Shown: positions 44,648 through 59,195 of the stretch, one piece after another
How positions within the stretch are numbered: the first letter of the stretch is position 1
Layout of the letters: each line of letters begins with the position of its first letter
DNA from: Stellaceae bacterium
GTDB taxonomy: Bacteria; Pseudomonadota; Alphaproteobacteria; ATCC43930; CGMCC-115725
DNA length: 64,000 nucleotides
Assembly: GCA_035623985.1 (NCBI GenBank)
Contig: DASPSJ010000109.1
Coordinates: forward strand, 979 to 64,978
Reading direction: 5' to 3'
Translations under genes and position numbers: made by a program
Notes under the pieces: generated by a model
The model's database searches: none
Seen by the model: the letters and a program-made list of their open reading frames with translations, nothing else
What the model was told of the DNA's origin: nothing

Positions 44648-46072
<1,425 letters not shown>

Positions 46073-46108: not shown

Positions 46109-46387
46109 TCAGGCCAGAGCGTGGTCGGGGACGCCGAGATAGGCGGCGAGGCGGCGGCGGACCCAGCCCGGCAAGGCCCGGGGGATGCCATGCTCGAGAT
46201 AGGCGCGCAGGTAGGTGCTTGGCATGTCGATCGCCAAGGAGACCTGCTCCGCCGATTCCCCCAGCTCCTCCAGGGCGGTTCCCAGCACCGCCCGCGGCGC
46301 CTCCTCAAAGGCTGCCGGGCTGTTGTTCGCAAGATTGGTCGGCGGCATGAGCCTACTCCATTTCATCGTCTTGCGAGTCTGATGCAA
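46109..46387 (-). CDS. small putative HTH (XRE-like) protein
   Basis: About 80-92 aa. 'GESAEQVSLAIDMPSTYLRAYLEHG' looks like a helix-turn-helix. It is divergent from the cqsA-like gene. Start ambiguous (46387, 46366 or 46348). Confidence 0.45.
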   Translation of the reverse strand: MHQTRKTMKWSRLMPPTNLANNSPAAFEEAPRAVLGTALEELGESAEQVSLAIDMPSTYLRAYLEHGIPRALPGWVRRRLAAYLGVPDHALA

Positions 46388-46496: not shown

Positions 46497-47735
46497 ATGG
46501 AGTCAACGGTCAACCGGTTTGACGGGAACGGTGTCGAAATGTCGTCGGGGGAACGCACTTTTGCCTTCAGGGATTGGAGATCGTCTCCGCCCTCGACCCT
46601 CCATGCGGTGAATCAGCGCTACCAGGAATGGAAGTCGGGCTATGCCGCGGCCAATCTCATCGTCGTCGGCGGCAAGCCCGGCCCCGGCGCCATTCTGCTG
46701 GCCGGCAATGACTACCTGTCGCTGGCAAGGCACCCGAAAATCGTGCAGGCGATCGCCAGTACCCTGCTCAACACCCATTCCGACGTGCTGATGTCGACGG
46801 TTTACGTCCAGCATCTCGACGAGCAGCAGCACTATGAGGCCGCCATGGCGGCCTATCTCGGGAGCGAGGCGGCGGTGCTGTGCCAATCCGGCTGGTCGGC
46901 CAATGACGGGCTGATCCAGGTCCTGGCCGATGAGGACACGCCGGTCTACATCGATATCGGCGCGCACGCCTCGCTCTGGCAGGGAATTCACAGCGCCGGC
47001 GCGACGGCGCGCCCCTTCCGGCACAATGACCCCGCCAGCCTCGCCGCGCTCGCCAAGCGCTATGGCCCGGGCCTCATCGTGGCCGACGCGGTCTACAGCA
47101 CGACCGGGGACATCTGCCCGCTCGCCGACGTCGTCGACATCGCCGAGCGGCAAGGCTCCCTGGTGCTGCTGGACGAGTCGCATGCGGTCGGCGTGCGCGG
47201 GCCGAAAGGCGCCGGGCTCGCGGCCGAGCTGGGCCTCGTCGATCGCGTCCCGTTCCGCACGGTCAGCCTGTCGAAAGCCTTTGTCGGCCGCGGCGGCATC
47301 GTCGCCGGGCCGAGGCAGTTGCTGGAATATTTCCGGTTCGTGGCGCGCCCGTCGGTCTTCAGCTCGGCGGTGCTGCTGCACGAGATCGCGGCGTTCTCGG
47401 CGGCGCTCGAGATCATCCGCCTGGAAGAGTGGCGCCGGCAGGCGCTGCGGCAGAAATCGGGCTATCTGCGGCAGGGCCTGCTGGCCGCGGGATGGCCGAT
47501 CGCGAACAACGATGCCCCGATCATCGCGCTGATGGGCGGCGCGGAGGAGATCACCGTGCGGCTGCGCGACGCGCTCGAGGCGCGCAACGTCTTCGGCGCG
47601 GTGTTCTGCGCGCCGTCGACGCCGAAGAACCGGTCGCTGGTCCGGCTGACGGCGAATGCGACGGTGCCGGAAAGCGATCTCGACCGGGTGATCGAAGCTT
47701 GCGCGGCGGCGAAACGGGAAGCGGGCCTAGGCTGA
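46497..47735 (+). CDS. cqsA: CqsA/LqsA-like PLP-dependent alpha-oxoamine synthase family enzyme (putative alpha-hydroxyketone autoinducer synthase)
   Basis: 'LAGNDYLSLARHP', 'VLCQSGWSANDGLIQ', 'VYIDIGAHASLWQG', 'RYGPGLIVADAVYSTTGD', 'LLDESHAVGVRGPKGAGL', PLP-Lys 'SLSKAF' and 'VFGAVFCAPSTPKNRSLVRL'. These match my recollection of V. cholerae CqsA better than BioF, Kbl or ALAS, and the ALAS 'GSGGTRNISG' loop is absent. An alternative start is ATG 46539. Confidence 0.65.
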   Translation: MESTVNRFDGNGVEMSSGERTFAFRDWRSSPPSTLHAVNQRYQEWKSGYAAANLIVVGGKPGPGAILLAGNDYLSLARHPKIVQAIASTLLNTHSDVLMSTVYVQHLDEQQHYEAAMAAYLGSEAAVLCQSGWSANDGLIQVLADEDTPVYIDIGAHASLWQGIHSAGATARPFRHNDPASLAALAKRYGPGLIVADAVYSTTGDICPLADVVDIAERQGSLVLLDESHAVGVRGPKGAGLAAELGLVDRVPFRTVSLSKAFVGRGGIVAGPRQLLEYFRFVARPSVFSSAVLLHEIAAFSAALEIIRLEEWRRQALRQKSGYLRQGLLAAGWPIANNDAPIIALMGGAEEITVRLRDALEARNVFGAVFCAPSTPKNRSLVRLTANATVPESDLDRVIEACAAAKREAGLG

Positions 47736-49214
47736 GACCGCGATATCGCCGAGCGAGGCGCCGGGCAGGGGAAACCACAGCACCGTCTCGTCGGTGCGTC
47801 CGAAGGCGATGGACCGCGTCACCGTGCCGCCCATGCGTTCCAGCGCCAAATTGGCCAGCGCCAGATCCGGCCGGTTGGAAAATTCCCGATCGTTCCAGGA
47901 GACGCGGCGCAGGAGCCGAACCGCCGTCCCGCGCAGGCCGGCCGAGGAATCGGTGAGGCGCAGATAGTTCCAGCAGCCGGCCTGGCCGAGATTGACCACC
48001 AGCTCCGCTCCGGTCTCGCTGTAGATCTCGTTCAACGCCGCTTCGAGGACGCGCGCCAGCACGTGCGCCATCAGGACGGGCGAGCCGTGGAAGAGGAAAT
48101 CGTTGCGGCGGTCGATGAGGATGCGGGCGCGGTCGAGCTCGGCCGCAAAGGGCAGCCGCGCGACGGCGTCGTCGAGACAGCGCAGCATCGACGCGGCGCG
48201 CTGCTCGCCGGCCGCGGCATCGCCGCCCTCGGGGATGAGCATGCCGATGATGCCGCCGATCTGCTCGGCGGCTTCCTCGACGCGCGCCGGAACGCGCTCC
48301 AAGGCGGCGAGCTGGCGCGACGTCGGCTCCGACGCGCCCGGCTGGCGCCCGCCCTGCGGATAGGCGTGCACCAGCGTCGGCAGGAAGCGGCTCAGGCTCG
48401 CGGCATTGGTCCGGATGCTGACCAACGGGGATTGCATCTCCTTTGCCAGGAGAAGGCCGAGCTCGAGCCGCGCGCGCTCCTTGGCCTGGCGCAGGCCGGC
48501 GGCCTTGTAGCTGAAGATGGTGCCGGCGGTGAGCGTGAACAGGAAGATGGGCACGAATTCGAAGTAGAGGTTGACCGAAGTGGGGACGCCCGGCGAGACC
48601 ATGGCGTGGATCTGCCAGGCCAGGAGGGAGCCGGTGATGAACAGCAGGAACACGCTGATCCAGTCCAACAGCAGCACCACCAGGAACAGGCCGGCCATCG
48701 TCGACATGAGCCAGATGGTGGAAGTGTCGTTCTGCAGCAGCATGAAGGTGAAGAAGAACGGCCCGCAATAGAGCACCGTGCCCAGCCACAGGACCGGCAG
48801 GTAGCGCCGCCAGCGGCTCGGCCAGCGGTCCTTGGCCGCAATCGCGAAGCAGAGCAGCGTGCCGAAGAGGCGGATCCAGATGTTCTCGTAAGGCTGGGGA
48901 AACAGGAACTTCCAGACGAACCAATAGGCCGGGAACATGACGGCGGCGCACAGGCAGACCGGCACCATGTTGCTTTCGACATGGCGGACGCCGCCGAGGA
49001 TGACGGCGGCGACGTATTGGGTTGCCCGCTGAAGGGCCGAGCCGATGTCGCCGCTGCCGGTGGGCAGCGGGTTGCCGGCATCGAGCACCGTCGTCTGGTC
49101 GGTCGCGAGCGTCATGAGGGAGAAGACGGCTCCCGTCTCTTGAGTGGTGCGTGCATCGGCGTCGTGAACAGCGCTCGAAGCATGGCAAAGCGCATCTCTG
49201 CCCCAATTTGGCAC
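47727..49214 (-). CDS. cqsS: CqsS/LqsS-like multi-TM receptor with degenerate histidine-kinase core (H-box His replaced by Lys)
   Basis: TM domain 'FPAYWFVWKFLFPQPYENIWIR' and 'NDTSTIWLMS' resemble the CqsS sensor domain from memory. The DHp H-box position reads 'LAKEMQSPLVSI'. N-box 'LEAALNE'; G1 is 'DSSAGL' and G2 is 'DLALAN' in place of DxGxG and GxGLGL. There is no receiver domain. It converges on cqsA with a 9-nt overlap. An alternative start is 49115. Confidence 0.6.
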   Translation of the reverse strand: MPNWGRDALCHASSAVHDADARTTQETGAVFSLMTLATDQTTVLDAGNPLPTGSGDIGSALQRATQYVAAVILGGVRHVESNMVPVCLCAAVMFPAYWFVWKFLFPQPYENIWIRLFGTLLCFAIAAKDRWPSRWRRYLPVLWLGTVLYCGPFFFTFMLLQNDTSTIWLMSTMAGLFLVVLLLDWISVFLLFITGSLLAWQIHAMVSPGVPTSVNLYFEFVPIFLFTLTAGTIFSYKAAGLRQAKERARLELGLLLAKEMQSPLVSIRTNAASLSRFLPTLVHAYPQGGRQPGASEPTSRQLAALERVPARVEEAAEQIGGIIGMLIPEGGDAAAGEQRAASMLRCLDDAVARLPFAAELDRARILIDRRNDFLFHGSPVLMAHVLARVLEAALNEIYSETGAELVVNLGQAGCWNYLRLTDSSAGLRGTAVRLLRRVSWNDREFSNRPDLALANLALERMGGTVTRSIAFGRTDETVLWFPLPGASLGDIAVSA

Positions 49215-50884: not shown

Positions 50885-50971
50885 CGCCGTCGTCCGGCAA
50901 GCAGTGCGCCCAAGTCAAGCCAAAAAACAATGCGTAAGAAGAAGCACTAAGCGAACGTCGTCGGCGAGCGC

Positions 50972-51562
50972 CTAATCACCGTGCTTTAGGGGATGGGTCT
51001 GATCTTGATAGCGATCAGTGGGGCGAGTTCCATAGGCCATGTCTGGAGGTAACTCTGTCTTTAATTCAAAGAAGGTGATCTGGCAGGGTCGATCGATCAT
51101 GGGAGTTAGTTTTATGTCCAACGGACCGTTGTTCATCATTTCTAGAATTATGGGGCCGCTCCAGCCTGGCTGAATCCATGGAGCGGTTTGATGCATACTC
51201 AAGCCAACGCGCGCGTAGGTGCTGCGACCTTCGATAAGTGCGATCATATTGGTCGGCACTTTTATGCTTTCATACGTCATCCCAAGAATGAAGGCGCTCG
51301 GATGTAGTATAAAGCTCTCGGGATCTCCGAACTCGTCTTTGATCTTGAGTTCTTTGGTTGTGAAAAAACCGGATCGCCCAAGTGCGCCAAGACCATCTGC
51401 CACGGAGACGATTAGGCCTGGTGCCTTCTCGAGTTTCGTGAAGCTGAAGCCCAGTCTGAGATCAATAGAGGCCTCTCCCCATTGTCGCGGCTCCAATGGA
51501 GGATCAAAATCTATGGTGCCAGCTTCGACCGCCGCTCGCAGATTGACCTGCGAGAGTATCAT
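50972..51562 (-). CDS. dCTP deaminase family protein (dUTPase-fold, Dcd-like)
   Basis: 196 aa. 'ASIDLRLG', 'GRSTYARVGLSMHQTAPWIQPGWSGPIILEMMNNG' aligns with E. coli Dcd 'GRSSLARLGLMVH...DPGWSGCIVLEFYNSG', including the catalytic Glu. The gene is visibly AT-richer than the flanking DNA. Confidence 0.75.
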   Translation of the reverse strand: MILSQVNLRAAVEAGTIDFDPPLEPRQWGEASIDLRLGFSFTKLEKAPGLIVSVADGLGALGRSGFFTTKELKIKDEFGDPESFILHPSAFILGMTYESIKVPTNMIALIEGRSTYARVGLSMHQTAPWIQPGWSGPIILEMMNNGPLDIKLTPMIDRPCQITFFELKTELPPDMAYGTRPTDRYQDQTHPLKHGD

Positions 51563-51570
51563 TGTGCCCC

Positions 51571-51867
51571 CTATGCCGCGGGCTTAACGTGCTCTTTCGC
51601 CCATTCGCGGTTCAAGTACGCCAAGCCGGTAGTTGTAAAGAAAGAACCAGACACCACAACCGTAATCGTGTCTCCGGACACTTCTTGTATGGTTGCCCGA
51701 ATGTATCCTTCGTGTTGTCCCTCAGCTCTTTCAACGTTTTCACGGCGAACGAAACCCGAGAGAGGTCCTTCCGCAGTTTCAAAGGTCACGAGCACCTCGG
51801 TTGGGAATGCGCCTCTCTGAACCTCACAGCGAATACGGACGGCTTGGCCAGGAGCAAAGCTCGGCAT
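51571..51867 (-). CDS. hypothetical 98-aa protein co-transcribed with the Dcd-like gene
   Basis: ORF ending 8 nt upstream of the Dcd-like start, with the same low-GC composition and a beta-rich sequence 'AVRIRCEVQRGAFPTEVLVTF...YIRATIQEVSGDTITVVVSG'. No family was recognised. Confidence 0.5.
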   Translation of the reverse strand: MPSFAPGQAVRIRCEVQRGAFPTEVLVTFETAEGPLSGFVRRENVERAEGQHEGYIRATIQEVSGDTITVVVSGSFFTTTGLAYLNREWAKEHVKPAA

Positions 51868-52064
51868 AGAGTGTCCCTTCCCTATAAGTAGCTACATATA
51901 GCGCTTCGTTCTTCTTATGTACTCATATTCGATGCCATATCTAGTATGTTTGTTCCTGTCAAGAAGTGTCAATCCAATTTGTATCTTCTAGGACAACTAT
52001 CCCCCGCAATCTGTCTCCTGGGGATAAAAGTTTTTGAGATGCATAATTCTGCAGCGGTTTTTTT

Positions 52065-52343
52065 TCACTCCGCCTCGAACGCCCCGAGCTCCGGCCAAGG
52101 GGCTTGATCCGCCATTGCGGGGTGGAGACGTCCAGCCTGGCGGGTGAAGCTGAGCCGGCCGCGCTTCAGGCCGCAGAGCGGCTGCGCCAGCTCGGCGACC
52201 GCGGCTTTGGCATCGCGGCAATCGAAGATGACGAGGTCGGCCGGCCGGCCGACGGCGGTGCCGTACTCCGCGCGGCGCATCAGCCGCGCCGAGCGCGTCG
52301 TCAGCATGGCGAAGCACTCGGCGAGATCCTCCGCCCCGCCGAC
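52065..52343 (-). pseudogene. orphan duplicate of the 3' end (last ~90 codons) of the amidohydrolase gene; left copy of a 279-bp direct repeat
   Basis: It aligns base for base with 59196..59474, with 5 mismatches counted by eye. It translates to '...VGGAEDLAECFAMLTTRSARLMRRAEYG...PELGAFEAE' but lacks the rest of the gene. Confidence 0.85.
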
Positions 52344-52558
52344 GAAGGCAGGCGGTTGTCGCTGACTTTATGAATGGGTTCGACCTCGCCGCCAAGGCAC
52401 GCCGATGCGTCCCGGCCTGCGCTTGATCTACATGACAGGGTATCGGCGCCGGGATCGTAAGCCGACAGCAGCCTTGTCGATCCCGCAGCACTCGTTCTAT
52501 TTCTTGCCGGTCGCCTAAAAGCAGGGTGCTTACGAGGTGGTATCCCTTTCATCGTTGC

Positions 52559-55500
52559 TTACGACCAGTCGCGCTTTTCGACGTCTTGGTCGTGTCGGCG
52601 CGCGTCGTTTTCGTAAAATTGAGCGATGCGTTCCAGCATCGCGGCGGTTTGGGGCCATTCGATACGCAACGTCTGGGAAAAGCGCCGGTATTGCGCGGCG
52701 ATCTCACGCTCCTGATCGCCGCCATCGTTCATGGCCCGCCAGGTCGGGCCGCGCTTGCGGATTAATCCCATCATGACGCCGTCTTCGATTTCGGCACTAT
52801 GAAGCGTGTCAACGATGTCGCGCACCGGTGGTGGCGGCCAAATGCCGTCAGCCTCGGCGACAGCATAAGCGAAGACACTTCCAATTTGCCGGTCACAGAC
52901 CTTTCTGCGTCCTATCACCGCACACGCGCGCCGTGCCTCTGTAATCCATCGCTCAAGGGTATCCCGATTGATCGTAGCTCCTTCTTGGCCAGGGATTTGA
53001 GTCCACGAATTCAGGAGCTGATAACCGCGTGAGAACATTGCCTCCCGATTTTCAGACGAATCCGATTCCGGTTCGGAGATGCCGCTTTCGGGATCAGGCC
53101 GATAGACGATCCGGATTACCTCAGCAAAAAATGCCGGATCGTTCGCAAGTTCTCGATGAAGCGCGCTAAGTGACCTCTGCGAACGGCGGAGTATCGGACA
53201 ATACGCCCATTCAAGCTGCGCGATCGTGGAATTTTCGACTTCAGACCGCTTATCGAGCGCTTGAAGAACATGCTCAAGGTAATATTGGAAATTGCTGACA
53301 TCAAAATCGACACGCTTGTCCGTCAATGGTTCGCTCGCCGCGTTTTCAAGAATCGTAACGAGTGTGGCGGTCGGAATTTCTTTTCCGTGGCGTGCCGCGA
53401 CGGATACGGTTGCCCGTGGGCGGCCGACGGACATCAATTTGTTGATGGCAAACAGTCCTTCGCCGGGGACGCCGGCGGCGGTGATGGATGGGATCCGTCG
53501 CCAATACTCATTTTCGATATCTGATCCGAACACGCTGATGCGGTCCCAGAGGCGCCGCGATTCCCGAATAAGCAGGGCGACCACGATGACCATATCTTTG
53601 GTCCAGCTCTCAGCGAGCGCTCGGTCGAGCAGCTTATATCCCCAATCTGCATCGTTGGAGCGCAGGCAGCCGAGCACAATCCCTCGTGCGACATCGACCA
53701 ACTGGCTATCGCCCTTCAGACAGTGCACAAGGATGGTCTCGCGCCGCTCTTCGGTGATGGTTGCGCTGGCAATCGCGTTGCCGATGCTGAAGGGGCTTTC
53801 GACATAATGTGCGAAGCGGAAGACAGCATCGTCACCTTGTGTACCCAAGATTTTGTCGACGGCCTGCTGCCGCAAGAGATTTGCTTGAACCTCTTGAGCT
53901 TCCCAACCACCGTTCGGCGGATGTGGCAAGGGAACTTCACCATTGACGAAAAGCCAAGCAATCTGCTCGTCACGATCGTTGGGCGTTAGTTGCTCGTAGA
54001 TCGGGTCGAGCGGCGTGAGTTCAGCATCGGGCAGGGACCAGTCCGCATCGGGAAATTCCCGATGCTTATGAAGGAGCGAGCGGACAGCAACCCATACCGC
54101 CGATCGCGTTCTTTGGTCGAATTGGCCGACGCGCTCGCCGAGGAGAGTGATCGCGTTTCTCCGGTAGACTGGCGGAAGGTCGGCCAGGTGATCCACCAAC
54201 AACACCCAGCGGTTCCGGTCGGTGCCGACATCCTCAAGAAGACGTTTTGCAACTTCTTCGGCACTCTGGATCCAGAGTGGCGTCGTTATCTCTTCCTCGG
54301 CGCGGCCTTCGGAAAAATCGCGCCAGCGCGGCCGAGCTGATGGCCACATGGTGTCGTACGAAGTCGGCAGCAAGTCGCACATGAGGCGCCACGCAACCCC
54401 AGGTTCGTGCTTGCGAAGAATGGCATCCAGCACACCAAGCCGTTCGGTTAGAGATGCGTAGGTTTGGGGCATCCACAGTACGAACAAGTTGCGAAGGCTG
54501 TTAGCCGGACGATTACCGGAGCGTCCGCCGCCCGTATCCAGCGCGGCTAGCCGGGCGAGCAGGTGAGCCGCGCGGGAGATATATTTCGGGCTCCGAGCGA
54601 GGGTCTCCAGCGCCCAAAGCAAATGGCTATGATTGGCGCCGCTTGCGAGGGGCGTTTCGTCTTCAACAAACAACACCATGACCGGAGGATCGTTGAGGTC
54701 GAGGCTCGCCGCGACCGCGGATAAGAAGGTCTCCGGCGCGGCTTCGGCCAAAAGATCGAGAAGACGGGAAACCGACCACCACCGTCGTGCATCGGCATCG
54801 GTGAGAAGTTTTGAGACGATCGCCGCGGCTCTTTGCGCGGCGTCAGCGATACCGGCCTGATTGCCGAAGATCGCGAGTGCCATGAGCGTTTCGCTTAACC
54901 CGGCGCGGAGGAACTCCGAATGTTCCGGCATTTGCCCATGAATGGGCGCGTACCAGCGCTGGTCCTTGGGCATATCGAAACGAGGGTCGGGCCTGCCCAA
55001 CACATCAACCGCGACGTTGGCGTAAGCCTCAAGGGCCTGAGGCGTGAGGTAGGGTGCGAGCCGAAAGAGAGCGTCTCGTGGTGAGGCAATCTTCCACACA
55101 GAGCCGGATTTCCGTAGCGGGCTATCGGGGACTGTGAGCCAGGGGGTCAGTGACCGAACGATTGAATCGTAGTCGGCGTGAACGAGTTGCTCCATGACGG
55201 CACGGTCTGCGGGCTTTGCCTCATCCCAGGCCCCGGCAAGAAGCGCCGGGATCATGGTTGGGGCATGTAGCGGCGAAGCCCATTCGGGCACCATCCGCGC
55301 GTTTACGGACGGATGCAGCCTCCGAAATATTGCCAAACTGCCAGCCATGTCGCGTGCGACTTCGGATGCTTCTTGGTCGGGAAGCCCCATCGATTTGAGA
55401 GCAGCGTCTATCTCGATCCGGAGGGCACGGGAGAGGCGTATGACAGTTTCCGGTGTACCGACTTCGGACCCGAAGACGCTGTAGACGTGATGTCCTTGCC

Positions 55501-56599
55501 CCACAAGCCAGCGCGCTAATCCGGGATCGGCATTCTCAAGAACGATGATGAGCGACGTTGCGCTGTGCCCTAAAGCGCGTGCCTGGCCCGGCTCTGTGGC
55601 TATAAGGCACCGTGCCAGGTAGGAAAGGCGATAATCGGCAGGAAGGCGATCGATGGCGGCATAGAGGAACGCCATTGCCTCTTCCGGAGATTCCGCCTGG
55701 ATCGTGATTGGGGCGGGCTCGCCATAGAGCCAGTTCAGAGCCTGCGTGGTCTCTTCGTCGCGGCCAGCAAGAACGAGATCGGTGCTTATGGGCCATTCGG
55801 TCGATAACGACCACTCCTCCCAAACTTTCTCGATCTGGCGCAGGCCCAGCGGGAGCTTGCCGGTCAGCACGGCGAGCCAATGGCCGACGGCCGGGTTCAG
55901 CTCGATCCAATGAACAAGGTCAACGGCATCGAGCGCGCGGATATCGCCCCATTTTCCTTCTGCTTTTTTCTCGTTGAGCCACGCAGCCTTGCCGGAGAAC
56001 CGCAAGGGTGTCACGAAGACGAACGTCGAGTTCACCGGAACGATATCTTCCGGCTTTTGGCTGCGGTCGTTGAAAACCTTATCCGCCTTTTTGCGGATGT
56101 TGGCGGCTTGCGCCGTGAGCTCCCAACCGGATTCGCCTGCCGGAATATATTTCGAGCCGGCCGCGACGGTGCAACGGCCATCCCAACCGTGGAGGGAGAT
56201 GGCATCACCGCTCGGAAAGCGAAGCAAGGCCTCGTGCCCTTTTTCGGCGCGAATGAGGCGCGTCAGCAGTTCCGGCAGACGCGCTTGGCAATCGCGCGTT
56301 GCGGCCCATTGGCGTAGCTCGGTCTCATCGATGAAACGGAATGGGGTGTTGCCCTTTGGAAGGAAAGGCGGGTGTCCTGGCGGTGTTCCACGCACCGTGC
56401 CATCGTCGGAAAACGTAATGCGTTCTTTTTCGAAGCTTTTCACAATGGCATGAAGATTGTTCTGAATGGGTTCACGAAACCCGCGCTCAAAATCGGCGAC
56501 GGTGGATAGTGCCACGCCTGCTCGTTGCGCCAACGCGCGTTGAGACCAGCCAAGAAGCGCACGAGCGGCTTTGACCTGTGTGGCGGTGGGTATCGGCAT
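52559..56599 (-). CDS. 1346-aa protein of unknown function with N-terminal XRE-type HTH
   Basis: Uninterrupted ORF in a moderate-GC region. HTH 'QVKAARALLGWSQRALAQRAGVALSTVADFERG'. The following domain 'FPSGDAISLHGWDGRCTV...GESGWELTAQAANIRKKAD' is possibly nuclease-fold-like. The remainder is long and helical-repeat-like. No Walker A was seen by eye. Confidence 0.8.
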   Translation of the reverse strand: MPIPTATQVKAARALLGWSQRALAQRAGVALSTVADFERGFREPIQNNLHAIVKSFEKERITFSDDGTVRGTPPGHPPFLPKGNTPFRFIDETELRQWAATRDCQARLPELLTRLIRAEKGHEALLRFPSGDAISLHGWDGRCTVAAGSKYIPAGESGWELTAQAANIRKKADKVFNDRSQKPEDIVPVNSTFVFVTPLRFSGKAAWLNEKKAEGKWGDIRALDAVDLVHWIELNPAVGHWLAVLTGKLPLGLRQIEKVWEEWSLSTEWPISTDLVLAGRDEETTQALNWLYGEPAPITIQAESPEEAMAFLYAAIDRLPADYRLSYLARCLIATEPGQARALGHSATSLIIVLENADPGLARWLVGQGHHVYSVFGSEVGTPETVIRLSRALRIEIDAALKSMGLPDQEASEVARDMAGSLAIFRRLHPSVNARMVPEWASPLHAPTMIPALLAGAWDEAKPADRAVMEQLVHADYDSIVRSLTPWLTVPDSPLRKSGSVWKIASPRDALFRLAPYLTPQALEAYANVAVDVLGRPDPRFDMPKDQRWYAPIHGQMPEHSEFLRAGLSETLMALAIFGNQAGIADAAQRAAAIVSKLLTDADARRWWSVSRLLDLLAEAAPETFLSAVAASLDLNDPPVMVLFVEDETPLASGANHSHLLWALETLARSPKYISRAAHLLARLAALDTGGGRSGNRPANSLRNLFVLWMPQTYASLTERLGVLDAILRKHEPGVAWRLMCDLLPTSYDTMWPSARPRWRDFSEGRAEEEITTPLWIQSAEEVAKRLLEDVGTDRNRWVLLVDHLADLPPVYRRNAITLLGERVGQFDQRTRSAVWVAVRSLLHKHREFPDADWSLPDAELTPLDPIYEQLTPNDRDEQIAWLFVNGEVPLPHPPNGGWEAQEVQANLLRQQAVDKILGTQGDDAVFRFAHYVESPFSIGNAIASATITEERRETILVHCLKGDSQLVDVARGIVLGCLRSNDADWGYKLLDRALAESWTKDMVIVVALLIRESRRLWDRISVFGSDIENEYWRRIPSITAAGVPGEGLFAINKLMSVGRPRATVSVAARHGKEIPTATLVTILENAASEPLTDKRVDFDVSNFQYYLEHVLQALDKRSEVENSTIAQLEWAYCPILRRSQRSLSALHRELANDPAFFAEVIRIVYRPDPESGISEPESDSSENREAMFSRGYQLLNSWTQIPGQEGATINRDTLERWITEARRACAVIGRRKVCDRQIGSVFAYAVAEADGIWPPPPVRDIVDTLHSAEIEDGVMMGLIRKRGPTWRAMNDGGDQEREIAAQYRRFSQTLRIEWPQTAAMLERIAQFYENDARRHDQDVEKRDWS

Positions 56600-56716
56600 G
56601 AGAATATGACCTCATACTTTTTCTATGAGGTAGGATGAAAACTCGGCTGTTCAAGAGGCGAAGGAACCTGGCTATTTCCTATTTACCGTGTTGATAATAA
56701 TAGCTTAATTTTTATA

Positions 56717-56836
56717 GCAGAACACGCTTGTAATATTTCGACATAATATGATTGTAAATGATCGACATGATTTGCTTGTATAAATTCAACATGATATGCT
56801 TGTAAACATACGCAGAAAAAGCTTGTGGGACTACAA
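56717..56836. repeat. tandem array of four to five 24-bp units with core ACATGATATGCTTGTAAA (iteron/operator-like)
   Basis: Units start at 56717, 56741, 56765 and 56789 in exact 24-bp phase, with a fifth copy at ~56813 shifted by 1 nt. The core (G/A)(C/A)TTGT(A/G) recurs at 56726, 56750, 56774, 56798 and 56821. The array lies in the 259-bp divergent intergenic region. Confidence 0.8.
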
Positions 56837-56858
56837 AAGTTGAGTTGAGACGGGGCAT

Positions 56859-58421
56859 ATGCCGACACCCCACGAAAAGCTCGCTGCATCGCTCAGCGCG
56901 CTTCATGAACTCCAAAAGGGCGGGCGGCGTGTCTTCCGATCGAGCGAGCTCACGCGCCTCCATCGCGAACGCTTGACCCGAAACGGCTTCCTCCGGGAAG
57001 TCATGAAGGGATGGCTTATTTCATCAAGCCCCGATACGCGGGCCGGCGATAGCGCGCCTTGGTATGCCTCGTTCTGGGAGTTTTGCGCCCGCTATTGCGA
57101 CGACCGCTTCGGCGATCGATGGCACCTCTCGCCCGAGCAATCGCTGCTGCTGCTCGCCGAGAACACGGTCATCCCGCAACAGCTTATCGTCTATAGCCCG
57201 AAAGCGACGAACCACGATCTGAAGCTGTTGTTCGGCACGTCGCTTTACGATCTCAGGCAGCCGGAAATGCCGGCGCCCGCGAACCTGACCACACGCGACG
57301 GCTTGCGCCTTTTTTCACCGGCTGCGGCTTTGGTGAAAGCCCCGGAGGCATTCTTCGCCCGTTATCCGATAGAAGCACAGATTGCGCTGGCGAGCCTCAG
57401 AGACGCGACCGACGTGCTTCGTCGTCTTCTTGACGGGGGGCATTCTGTCGTCGCCGGCAGGCTGGCGGGCGCGTTTCGCCGCGTCGGCCGCGCCGACGCC
57501 GCCGACGAGATCGTCAAGACGATGAAGGCCGCGAGCTACGATGTCCGGGAATCCGATCCCTTCGCGCCCCAGCAAACATTTGGCGCGCTGCGCGGGGCCG
57601 CCGAGGCTCCGATTGTCGCCCGTATTCAGGCCCTATGGGAAACGACGCGCGGCTTGGTCATCGATGCTTTTCCGAAAGCGCCCGGCTTACCGGCGGATAA
57701 AACCGCTTACCTGGATTTCGTCGACGAGATCTATGCGCACGACGCCTATCATTCGCTCTCCATCGAAGGGTATCGCGTCAGCCCAGAGCTGATTGACCGG
57801 GTGCGATCGGGGGCTTGGAATCCCGCTCAAAACGAGGCCGACCGCAACAGCCGTGACGCTTTGGCCGCGCGCGGCTATTGGCAGGCTTTTCAGGTCGTCA
57901 AAGCCGATGTCGCGGAAATCATCGGCGGCGCCAACCCCGGCGCCTTGGTTCGCACCACTCATCGCGATTGGTATCGCGAACTATTCCAGCCTTGCATTGC
58001 GGCGGGATTGCTCCCCGCAGTCGCGCTCGCCGGATATCGCAACGATGCGGTCTATCTGCGCACGTCGCGTTACGTTCCGCCTCGGTGGGAAGCGGTGCGG
58101 GACGCCATGCCGGCGCTGTTCGACCTGCTTGAGAATGAAAAGGAACCTGCCGCACGCGCCGTCTTGGGCCATTGGCTGTTCGGCTACATTCATCCTTATC
58201 CGGACGGAAACGGAAGAATGGCGCGCTTTCTCATGAATGCGATGCTTGCCTCCGGCGGCTATCCATGGACCGTGATTCGGGTGGAGGACCGGGACGCCTA
58301 TTTGTCGGCGCTGGACCGCGCCAGCATCGATACGGATATTCGGCCATTTGCGGCCTTTATCGCCGAGCGCGTGCGGCGGTCGATCGACCAAGCGACACGC
58401 GGCAGTCGTCCCTCACAATAA
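56859..58421 (+). CDS. Fic-domain protein (putative AMPylase) with N-terminal extension
   Basis: Fic motif 'HPYPDGNGRMARFLMN'. A candidate intramolecular inhibitory motif 'SLSIEG' (S/TxxxE(G/N)) lies upstream of the core. Confidence 0.85.
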   Translation: MPTPHEKLAASLSALHELQKGGRRVFRSSELTRLHRERLTRNGFLREVMKGWLISSSPDTRAGDSAPWYASFWEFCARYCDDRFGDRWHLSPEQSLLLLAENTVIPQQLIVYSPKATNHDLKLLFGTSLYDLRQPEMPAPANLTTRDGLRLFSPAAALVKAPEAFFARYPIEAQIALASLRDATDVLRRLLDGGHSVVAGRLAGAFRRVGRADAADEIVKTMKAASYDVRESDPFAPQQTFGALRGAAEAPIVARIQALWETTRGLVIDAFPKAPGLPADKTAYLDFVDEIYAHDAYHSLSIEGYRVSPELIDRVRSGAWNPAQNEADRNSRDALAARGYWQAFQVVKADVAEIIGGANPGALVRTTHRDWYRELFQPCIAAGLLPAVALAGYRNDAVYLRTSRYVPPRWEAVRDAMPALFDLLENEKEPAARAVLGHWLFGYIHPYPDGNGRMARFLMNAMLASGGYPWTVIRVEDRDAYLSALDRASIDTDIRPFAAFIAERVRRSIDQATRGSRPSQ

Positions 58422-59195
58422 GAGATACGGAGTCGACGACGACGATAACGGAGCCTCGCGTGGTTCCAACGGTTGCTTTTGACACGAATACGCTCGCATC
58501 GGTGCTCTCTCCCGAGATCGCTCAACGGGGGACGGGGGTAACGGCGCGGTGATTGGAAACGCGATTTTGGAGGGACGCATACGGGGATTTTTCAGCGAAA
58601 CGCTCGTGACGCTTGAAGGCATCGAGAAAAAAGATCGTGCCGACGTTCTTGGGAGTCGGGCTCATCGCCACCAGAAAGGGTTCGGGCAACGGAAGATCGA
58701 GATCAACAGCGACCATGGCTGCCATCGCTTCCCGTACAAGGCCATTTACGCCCGTGTCCCAGCCGGCGGATAGCTTGACGAGACACTCAATCTCGTCCTC
58801 TTGCCCTTCCTATCGACAAGCTATCCAACACGGCTTGGTCCGACCCGACGTTGCGGCACGGTCAAAGCGTGTGGCCTGCACCAAGTCGAGCATGCATACC
58901 TCGCGCCCCTCACGCCGGCGACCGAACCGTCTTTGGGCTCCCGTCGCAATGCCGGCGCCGCGTCAACCCGTATCTTTGGTCCCGACGCTGACCGCACCGC
59001 CTTTCATAGACCAGACCAGCGCCGACTACCAGCGGTTGCGCGACCTTTCGAGGTCACTGCCAAGCGCTTGGGATATCGTTCGGTCATCGCGCTCCTACGA
59101 CACCTTCGATGATGCGATCGAATGGCAGGCAACGACCTTACCGGGAGCGCCGTCACATTCGCCGATCGGTACACGCGGGACAGGCGCGTCGCAGC

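Follow-up and report, generated by a model that had tools for sequence, protein, structure and literature searches.

Signalling by alpha-hydroxyketones (AHKs; CAI-1 and LAI-1) is understood only through the receptors CqsS of Vibrio and LqsS/LqsT of Legionella, all of them active histidine kinases, and the reviews of AHK signalling that we found deal with active kinases only, encoded in lqsA-lqsR-lqsS or cqsA-cqsS layouts. We analysed a stretch of 64,000 nucleotides from a Stellaceae bacterium (contig DASPSJ010000109.1, positions 979 to 64,978; hereafter the window), in which a gene for a CqsS/LqsS-like receptor (47727..49115, minus strand) lies next to a cqsA/lqsA-type gene for an AHK synthase and near a gene for a second histidine kinase. 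To judge from alignments, none of the residues that kinase activity requires is left in the receptor, and we consider this catalytic death solid. We propose, with a probability of roughly 0.55, that it is a ligand-sensing pseudokinase that would control the adjacent PleC/DivJ-like kinase by direct contact.

Among described systems, LqsS and LqsT of Legionella pneumophila and the LqsS-type receptors of Nitrococcus, Paraburkholderia and Polaromonas resemble the window receptor in their length (about 440 to 460 residues), in their six-transmembrane (six-TM), DHp and CA-type domains, in the lack of a receiver domain and in having their gene beside lqsA/cqsA; identity is 31 to 37% over the full length. 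However, they keep the phospho-acceptor His (H200 in LqsS, PMC3376566), the N-box, G1 and G2, and are followed by LqsR (67/67), whereas the window receptor has none of these, and a second kinase instead. CqsS of Vibrio cholerae and V. harveyi has a homologous TM domain, nine of 11 ligand contacts in common, the same spacing between the sixth TM helix (TM6) and the H-box, and an adjacent cqsA. It differs by its H190, its active CA domain and its RecL and receiver domains, which feed LuxU/LuxO, and its identity to the window receptor is 26%.

Outside AHK signalling, DivL of Caulobacter, which carries Tyr in place of His, also combines a histidine kinase fold under selection with the absence of a phospho-acceptor, and acts by protein contact to control a real kinase (PMC4211667), a type of contact that we infer for the window receptor. 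DivL is, however, cytoplasmic and rich in PAS domains, senses a phosphorylated regulator, controls CckA and has a recognisable HATPase_c domain, whereas the window receptor would be a membrane receptor for a small molecule, with all its ATP-binding motifs erased. In RetS-GacS of Pseudomonas and FasB/FasC of group A Streptococcus, one histidine kinase-like protein regulates or completes another by way of the DHp, and the two divide labour (PMC8498467, PMC12675982). RetS differs in that it has retained its catalytic motifs and is not encoded beside gacS. FasB and FasC each supply a catalytic part, whereas the window receptor would supply none, its interaction with a kinase being presumed.

Catalytic motifs, ligand pocket and selection

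The open reading frame (ORF) 47727..49214 on the minus strand is intact, as had been read from the sequence alone. Its GTG start at 49214, taken over in that sequence-only reading, is probably wrong: it adds 33 codons and is used by no homologue, while the internal ATG at 49115 ('MTLATDQ') is the start in all homologues, which all begin with 'MT[LI]..', and in both public gene calls. The true product is therefore probably a protein of 462 residues, whose numbering is used here (the earlier numbering is higher by 33). Alignment with V. campbellii CqsS, invariant columns and the helices of an AlphaFold2 (AF2) model delimit a six-TM signal-binding domain (residues 1-205, 48501..49115); alignments, AF2 and the family profile place a DHp-like helical hairpin at residues 206-300 (48216..48500), and a CA-like alpha/beta domain is predicted at residues 301-462 (47730..48215), all on the minus strand. 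In the source databases, receptors of this type bear names such as 'hypothetical protein' and 'CqsS sensor kinase/phosphatase', neither of which fits them.

At the position of the phospho-acceptor His, the codon AAG (48441..48443, minus strand) encodes Lys225 (Lys258 in the longer ORF), in 'LLAKEMQSPLVSI'. The DHp motif A224-K225-E226-x-x-S229-P230-L231 stands where A-H-E-x-x-T-P-L is canonical, and in the alignment with relatives the canonical H-box A-H-E-L-R-T-P-L becomes A-K-E-M-Q-S-P-L. By BLASTP, H190 of V. harveyi/campbellii CqsS ('IAHEMRNPL') is aligned with K225 ('LAKEMQSPL'), with no indel from TM6 to the H-box, and in a family-wide profile the K225 column coincides with the H-box His of ZraS and VicK, two kinases of solved structure. 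The CqsS sequence of V. campbellii (formerly harveyi) was taken from chromosome 2 and numbered from 'MDAIRK', which matches the residue numbers of the cryo-electron microscopy (cryo-EM) preprint cited below. The His-to-Lys replacement first read from the sequence alone is thus confirmed. A sequencing error, already doubted there because AAG differs from either His codon by two bases, can be rejected, since the same AAG is present in three independent assemblies and at all seven sequenced loci of the clade carrying this Lys (the Lys clade), where conservation in orthologues was checked.

Related loci have CGG, CGC or CGT (Arg), AAC (Asn) or GGC (Gly) at this position, and Asn, Gln and Ser variants occur within the Lys clade itself (P0017, P0021, P0027); single steps lead from His (CAC) by way of Asn (AAC) to Lys (AAG). 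We searched the DHp for another conserved His that could act as acceptor and found none: the sole His of this domain ('LVHAYP') varies within the clade. Around the lost His, the clade shows no variation at A224, E226, P230, L231, R235 and T236 of helix alpha1. Invariance also holds for the Glu at H+1 and the Pro-Leu at H+5/6, and position H+4, always Thr in canonical relatives, holds S, A, T, E or G in receptors that are degenerate.

The ATP-binding motifs are eroded as well. In register with the N-box 'HVLFNLLKNAL', the window receptor reads 'HVLARVLEAAL', both Asn being gone (Arg and Ala). G1, DTGxGI in relatives, is DSSAGL, and G2, GxGLxF, is RPDLALAN; the alignments with relatives and with V. 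campbellii CqsS confirm the degeneracy of both boxes that had been noted before. The Asn of 'ALNE', which had been taken as a retained N-box Asn, does not qualify as a substitute: it lies three residues downstream, out of register, and is N, S, H, D, G or A within the clade. Neither HisKA nor HATPase_c was matched in the window receptor with Pfam and NCBIfam. As for the lack of a receiver domain, the absence is real but says little, because the LqsS-type relatives found (about 430-460 residues) all lack one. With the acceptor His, the Mg-binding Asn, G1 and G2 missing, the earlier view of a CqsS-like ligand-binding receptor unable to autophosphorylate gains support.

The signal-binding domain is better preserved in its contact residues. 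In V. harveyi CqsS, CAI-1 has polar contacts with W33, R47 and S103, and hydrophobic contacts with F26, Y29, L83, F86, F87, F158, F162 and F166 (PMC13174287, a cryo-EM preprint). In the alignment with V. campbellii CqsS, nine of these 11 are identical in the window receptor, including all three polar ones: F26, Y29, W33, R47, F86, F87, S103, F158 and F166 correspond to F61, Y64, W68, R82, F121, F122, S138, F193 and F201. The remaining two are replaced by smaller residues (L83 by G118, F162 by A197), and one may speculate that the signal is bulkier or longer. Most contact positions are invariant, or nearly so, across the family. The window receptor thus appears to keep an AHK-binding pocket, and presumably binds an AHK.

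The ratio of non-synonymous to synonymous substitution rates (dN/dS) was estimated by the Nei-Gojobori method between the window and a locus 84% identical to it in a metagenome-assembled genome (MAG; L008), with 95% bootstrap intervals. It is 0.24 for the whole receptor, with 0.26 in the TM domain, 0.20 in the DHp and 0.25 (0.13-0.45) in the dead CA-like domain, which is close to the 0.23 of cqsA; the neighbouring kinase is at 0.18, and a small ORF between the two at 0.22. More distant pairs likewise give values below 1, and no frameshift or stop was seen in about 29 protein clusters (47-100% identity) and the seven sequenced loci. These data contradict the early decay that had been considered for the receptor. 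We conclude from the substitution pattern that the gene is conserved under purifying selection, and we regard this selection as solid.

The fold of a histidine kinase (DHp and CA) is predicted to be kept. The AF2 model (pLDDT 84, pTM 0.69) shows six TM helices, TM6 being continuous with DHp helix alpha1, then the second DHp helix and an alpha/beta domain; searched with Foldseek, it matched DHp-CA structures with a probability of 1.0, including DivL (4q20), GacS and the RetS-GacS complex. At the sequence level, a single-sequence search of the PDB with the receptor returned nothing useful. A profile built from the degenerate clade alone found no solved histidine kinase (best E value 0.35), whereas the family-wide profile reached such kinases at 5e-21.

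Partner kinase and receptor types across loci

The second kinase of the window (44684..46072, plus strand) has 462 residues and several TM helices at its N-terminus; its HisKA ('SHELRTPLN') and HATPase_c (N, G1 and G2) domains are both intact and of PleC/DivJ-like type. Such a partner kinase recurs in other genomes. A protein database search gave 82 relatives of the receptor: up to 37% identity they are ordinary kinases of LqsS type, about 430-460 residues long and with HATPase_c, and in the 29 closest (47-100% identity) no domain was detected. So far, metagenomes and MAGs are the only source of the clade of the window receptor. Species-representative genomes, scanned next, yielded 80 loci, each scored for its H-box, ATP-binding motifs and neighbouring genes, and associations were counted over 85 non-redundant loci.

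Degeneracy of the receptor strictly co-varies with the presence of a partner kinase and the absence of LqsR. All 67 complete loci with a canonical receptor (Paraburkholderia, Nitrococcus, Propionivibrio, Alcanivorax and others) have LqsR downstream and none has a partner kinase, while the partner kinase stands beside 13 of the 17 informative degenerate or semi-degenerate loci, none of which has LqsR; the Tistrella operons described below add to these. Among the 13 receptors with a partner kinase, 11 have lost both the His (now K, R or N) and the N-box Asn, and two (L030, L033) have kept both, with G1 and G2 degenerate. Two of the four degenerate loci where no partner kinase was seen lie on contigs that end too early (L014, L066); the other two (L010, L019) are genuine exceptions. 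Sub-lineages vary in gene order, and the association of receptor and kinase persists. The HATPase_c score falls from 68-73 bits in canonical receptors to 54 (P0030) and 40 (L012), down to no match in the window.

On a wider scale, a profile search of 1.84 billion representative proteins returned 2,635 relatives. Of the 150 best-ranking representatives, 128 carry the His and some 20 are without it (R, Q, N, D, K, S, A or Y), so that loss of the His is recurrent in the CqsS/LqsS family. Four proteins without His (P0240, P0313, P0337 and P0350, with N, Q, N and a DivL-like Y) have intact N, G1 and G2 boxes, and represent a different kind.

Homologues of the partner kinase led to receptors of a still simpler build in Tistrella. 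In the complete genome of T. bauzanensis, a 307-residue receptor begins 4 nucleotides after the kinase gene; it matches residues 11-286 of the window receptor at 44% identity, has the H-box 'GRMVQTPL', and consists of the TM domain and DHp only, with no CA domain. A convergent cqsA lies 122 nucleotides downstream. The T. mobilis receptor (297 residues) is likewise TM plus DHp only, and in Tistrella the gap from the stop of the kinase gene is 4-6 nucleotides, an arrangement that suggests an operon. Since these receptors consist of TM and DHp only, the CA-like domain is dispensable in this lineage, TM plus DHp making up the minimal receptor; such a receptor in an operon with the kinase is what one would predict from communication between the kinase and the DHp, or the TM domain.

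In T. mobilis KA081020-065, which we take to be the didemnin producer, the pair (L093, 4388-6801) is carried by the conjugative 1.13-Mb megaplasmid pTM3. No cqsA was found within 6 kb of it, and the pair may be 'listening-only', or the synthase may lie elsewhere.

Proposed mechanism and competing explanations

In the mechanism that we propose, the six-TM domain would still bind the AHK made by the adjacent CqsA, and the ligand would move TM6, continuous with DHp alpha1, as in V. harveyi CqsS. The receptor would not autophosphorylate; its DHp, together with the CA-like domain, would contact the neighbouring PleC/DivJ-like kinase and shift the kinase/phosphatase balance of the latter. This kinase would in turn signal to a response regulator, which we place elsewhere in the genome because none is conserved near the module. 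The two proteins would work as a sensor subunit and a catalytic subunit, a pair replacing the LqsS-to-LqsR phosphotransfer in this alphaproteobacterial lineage. AHK binding, physical contact with the partner kinase, the direction of regulation and the identity of the output regulator are what we infer here. The DHp contact of RetS-GacS (PMC8498467) and the obligate FasB/FasC heterodimer with its divided labour (PMC12675982) provide precedents, and DivL-CckA a conceptual one (PMC4211667). The sequence-only reading had left three options for the receptor, namely signalling through a partner kinase, a mechanism other than a phosphorelay, and early decay. The comparative data favour the first, because a kinase is conserved beside degenerate receptors across deep divergence and different gene orders, and LqsR is never there.

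Several observations weigh against this proposal. One degenerate locus (L010) has an EnvZ/OmpR-like pair in the position of the partner kinase, and another (L019) has 1.1 kb without a partner kinase. The module itself holds no response regulator. The family of the partner kinase also has stand-alone members, without cqs genes (P0131, P0155); adjacency thus does not hold throughout this family, and the kinase looks like a recruit from a wider stock of orphan kinases. Phylogenetic independence is lacking in the association counts: a neighbour-joining tree, in which all canonical receptors fall to the same side of one split, fits a single origin of the degenerate lineage, so that the association may be one ancestral event and the Fisher p value of 4.5e-9 is descriptive only. 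Finally, the alignment given to AF2 held canonical kinases, from which the retention of the fold is partly inherited.

Other explanations were considered. The strong conservation of DHp alpha1 around the lost His concerns the surface on which regulators dock in canonical kinases, and the dead DHp-CA module could bind a response regulator, perhaps when this is phosphorylated, and so serve as a scaffold or sequestering protein under control of the ligand, without direct contact with the neighbouring kinase. DivL acts as an adaptor of this kind (PMC4211667), and its DHp-CA structure (4q20) is among the matches of the receptor model. However, the same conservation is equally expected for contact with a kinase, the module and its surroundings contain no conserved regulator gene, LqsR is absent from every degenerate locus, and the Tistrella forms lack the CA domain altogether, which makes a regulator-binding adaptor rather unlikely. 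Alternatively, the partner may be the synthase. A tight complex of CqsS with CqsA has been described in V. harveyi, with the DHp among the surfaces used (2026 cryo-EM preprint, PMC13174287), and cqsA is always adjacent to and convergent with the receptor gene, with overlapping 3' ends; the cytoplasmic module might bind CqsA and regulate signal synthesis, be regulated by it, or serve in signal hand-off, all without a phosphorelay. Yet the DHp residues that contact CqsA in Vibrio (D204, S208, N212, K214, E215) are A239, R243, T247, V249 and H250 here, the other two Vibrio interfaces are the RecL and Rec domains absent from the window receptor, and in T. mobilis the receptor-kinase pair is retained with no cqsA close to it. 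This explanation would also leave the conserved partner kinase unaccounted for, and we hold it to be unlikely.

The receptor might also be a dedicated phosphatase, its DHp dephosphorylating the regulator of the neighbouring kinase under AHK control. The HisKA phosphatase motif is H-E-x-x-T/N, and the invariance of the Glu at H+1 and the Pro-Leu at H+5/6 agrees with this scenario. Vibrio CqsS goes to a phosphatase mode upon ligand binding (PMC13174287, PMC3376566). However, the acceptor His is gone, and we downgraded this candidate since the Thr at H+4 is not conserved, being Ala in several members of the Lys clade; a phosphatase seems very unlikely. Finally, a decaying or functionless relic, a decoy receptor or an assembly artefact could be suspected from the erosion of all catalytic motifs and from the restriction of the clade to metagenomes and MAGs. 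We consider this extremely improbable and largely refuted: every domain has a dN/dS of about 0.2-0.26, and the confidence intervals stay well under 1; 29 clusters, at 47-84% identity, have intact ORFs, the same AAG occurs in three independent assemblies and at seven loci, and the ligand contacts are conserved.

Coming back to the control of the partner kinase by a non-catalytic receptor, we suggest more tentatively, at somewhat less than an even chance, that the receptors of a whole alphaproteobacterial CqsS/LqsS lineage gave up their autonomy as kinases and became sensing subunits, themselves without catalysis, of a separate histidine kinase. The proposed intermediates would be receptors with the His kept and the ATP lid degenerate (L030, L033), then those with the His lost and HATPase_c still recognisable (P0030, L012), those with all motifs erased, as in the window, and those from which the CA domain is deleted, leaving TM and DHp (Tistrella).

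Neighbouring genes and significance

The module of four genes, comprising the kinase, a small ORF, cqsA and the receptor, recurs with unrelated flanks on other metagenomic contigs and in four GTDB MAGs. No response regulator is conserved in or near it, and no LqsR homologue was found in the window or at any degenerate locus. The synthase gene (46497..47735, plus strand) scores 466.6 bits, above the NCBI equivalog cut-off of 428 for CqsA/LqsA (NF005526). It converges with the receptor gene, the 3' ends overlapping by 9 nucleotides (47727-47735), as they also do at L004, and no terminator-like structure lies between the two; transcriptional interference or antisense coupling is possible there. 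A promoter scan of 44.3-49.5 kb detected no sigma-70-like sites, and terminator-like matches did not exceed the shuffled expectation.

The small ORF (46109..46348, minus strand) encodes a conserved protein of 79 residues, possibly with a helix-turn-helix (HTH) of Cro/C1 type. This assignment is weak, the HTH_25 match being below threshold and the Cro/C1-type fold matches not significant; no PHROG match was found. A protein of 79-92 residues is encoded between partner kinase and cqsA in modules of the Lys clade only (the window, L003, L004 and L008-L011), and it might regulate cqsA or serve as a transcriptional output.

Further genes accompany other cqs loci. In those of marine Rhodospirillaceae and Marinicaulis, a LolA_like/TP_0789-like lipoprotein is encoded between the degenerate receptor and the partner kinase (L012 7196-9456; L033 7275-8198; L089/L090 3668-5847), and might be a carrier of the hydrophobic signal. 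In Rhodospirillaceae it is preceded by a protein of 436-463 residues without Pfam match (L012-14, L017, L019, L089/L090); at L033 the lipoprotein comes without this protein. Directly downstream of the ordinary cqsA, L089 (8766-12326) and L090 (8733-12326) encode a second CqsA-like domain fused to MMPL, an RND-type lipid transporter, in a protein of about 1186-1197 residues, which suggests that synthesis is coupled to export. Large fusion ORFs containing a CqsA-like region are also present in L030 (6272-9382) and L035 (1953-5540).

Elsewhere in the window, the region 50900-58500 has a lower GC content (0.50-0.62, versus 0.65-0.72 in the flanks) and may be a mobile or defence island. It encodes a dCTP-deaminase-like protein (50972..51562, minus strand), a 98-residue ORF, a protein of 1346 residues (52559..56599, minus strand) whose sole recognisable part is an N-terminal XRE-type HTH, and a Fic-domain protein (56859..58421, plus strand) that matches SoFic of PADLOC.

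Histidine pseudokinases are already known, namely DivL, PsmA of Streptomyces (PMC12963549) and an evolved ChrS (PMC9491836). Full-text literature searches returned no description of a quorum-sensing histidine pseudokinase, and no paper in which CqsS and 'pseudokinase' stand together. The branch described here appears to be widespread in the environment, in soil and peat Stellaceae/Rhodospirillales and in abundant marine Rhodospirillaceae, and would use a dead receptor and a second kinase in place of the LqsR output. As the Tistrella versions belong to cultured strains with complete genomes, the hypothesis is directly testable. If it is true, this would be the first AHK quorum-sensing pathway to bypass the receptor's own phosphorylation, and with it a new wiring logic in quorum sensing; the few known bacterial histidine pseudokinases would be joined by a membrane-bound case that binds a small molecule. 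The family would also offer a graded natural series in which the parts of a kinase that transmit the signal are separated from the catalytic ones, the first such series to lead from a two-component sensor to an accessory receptor.

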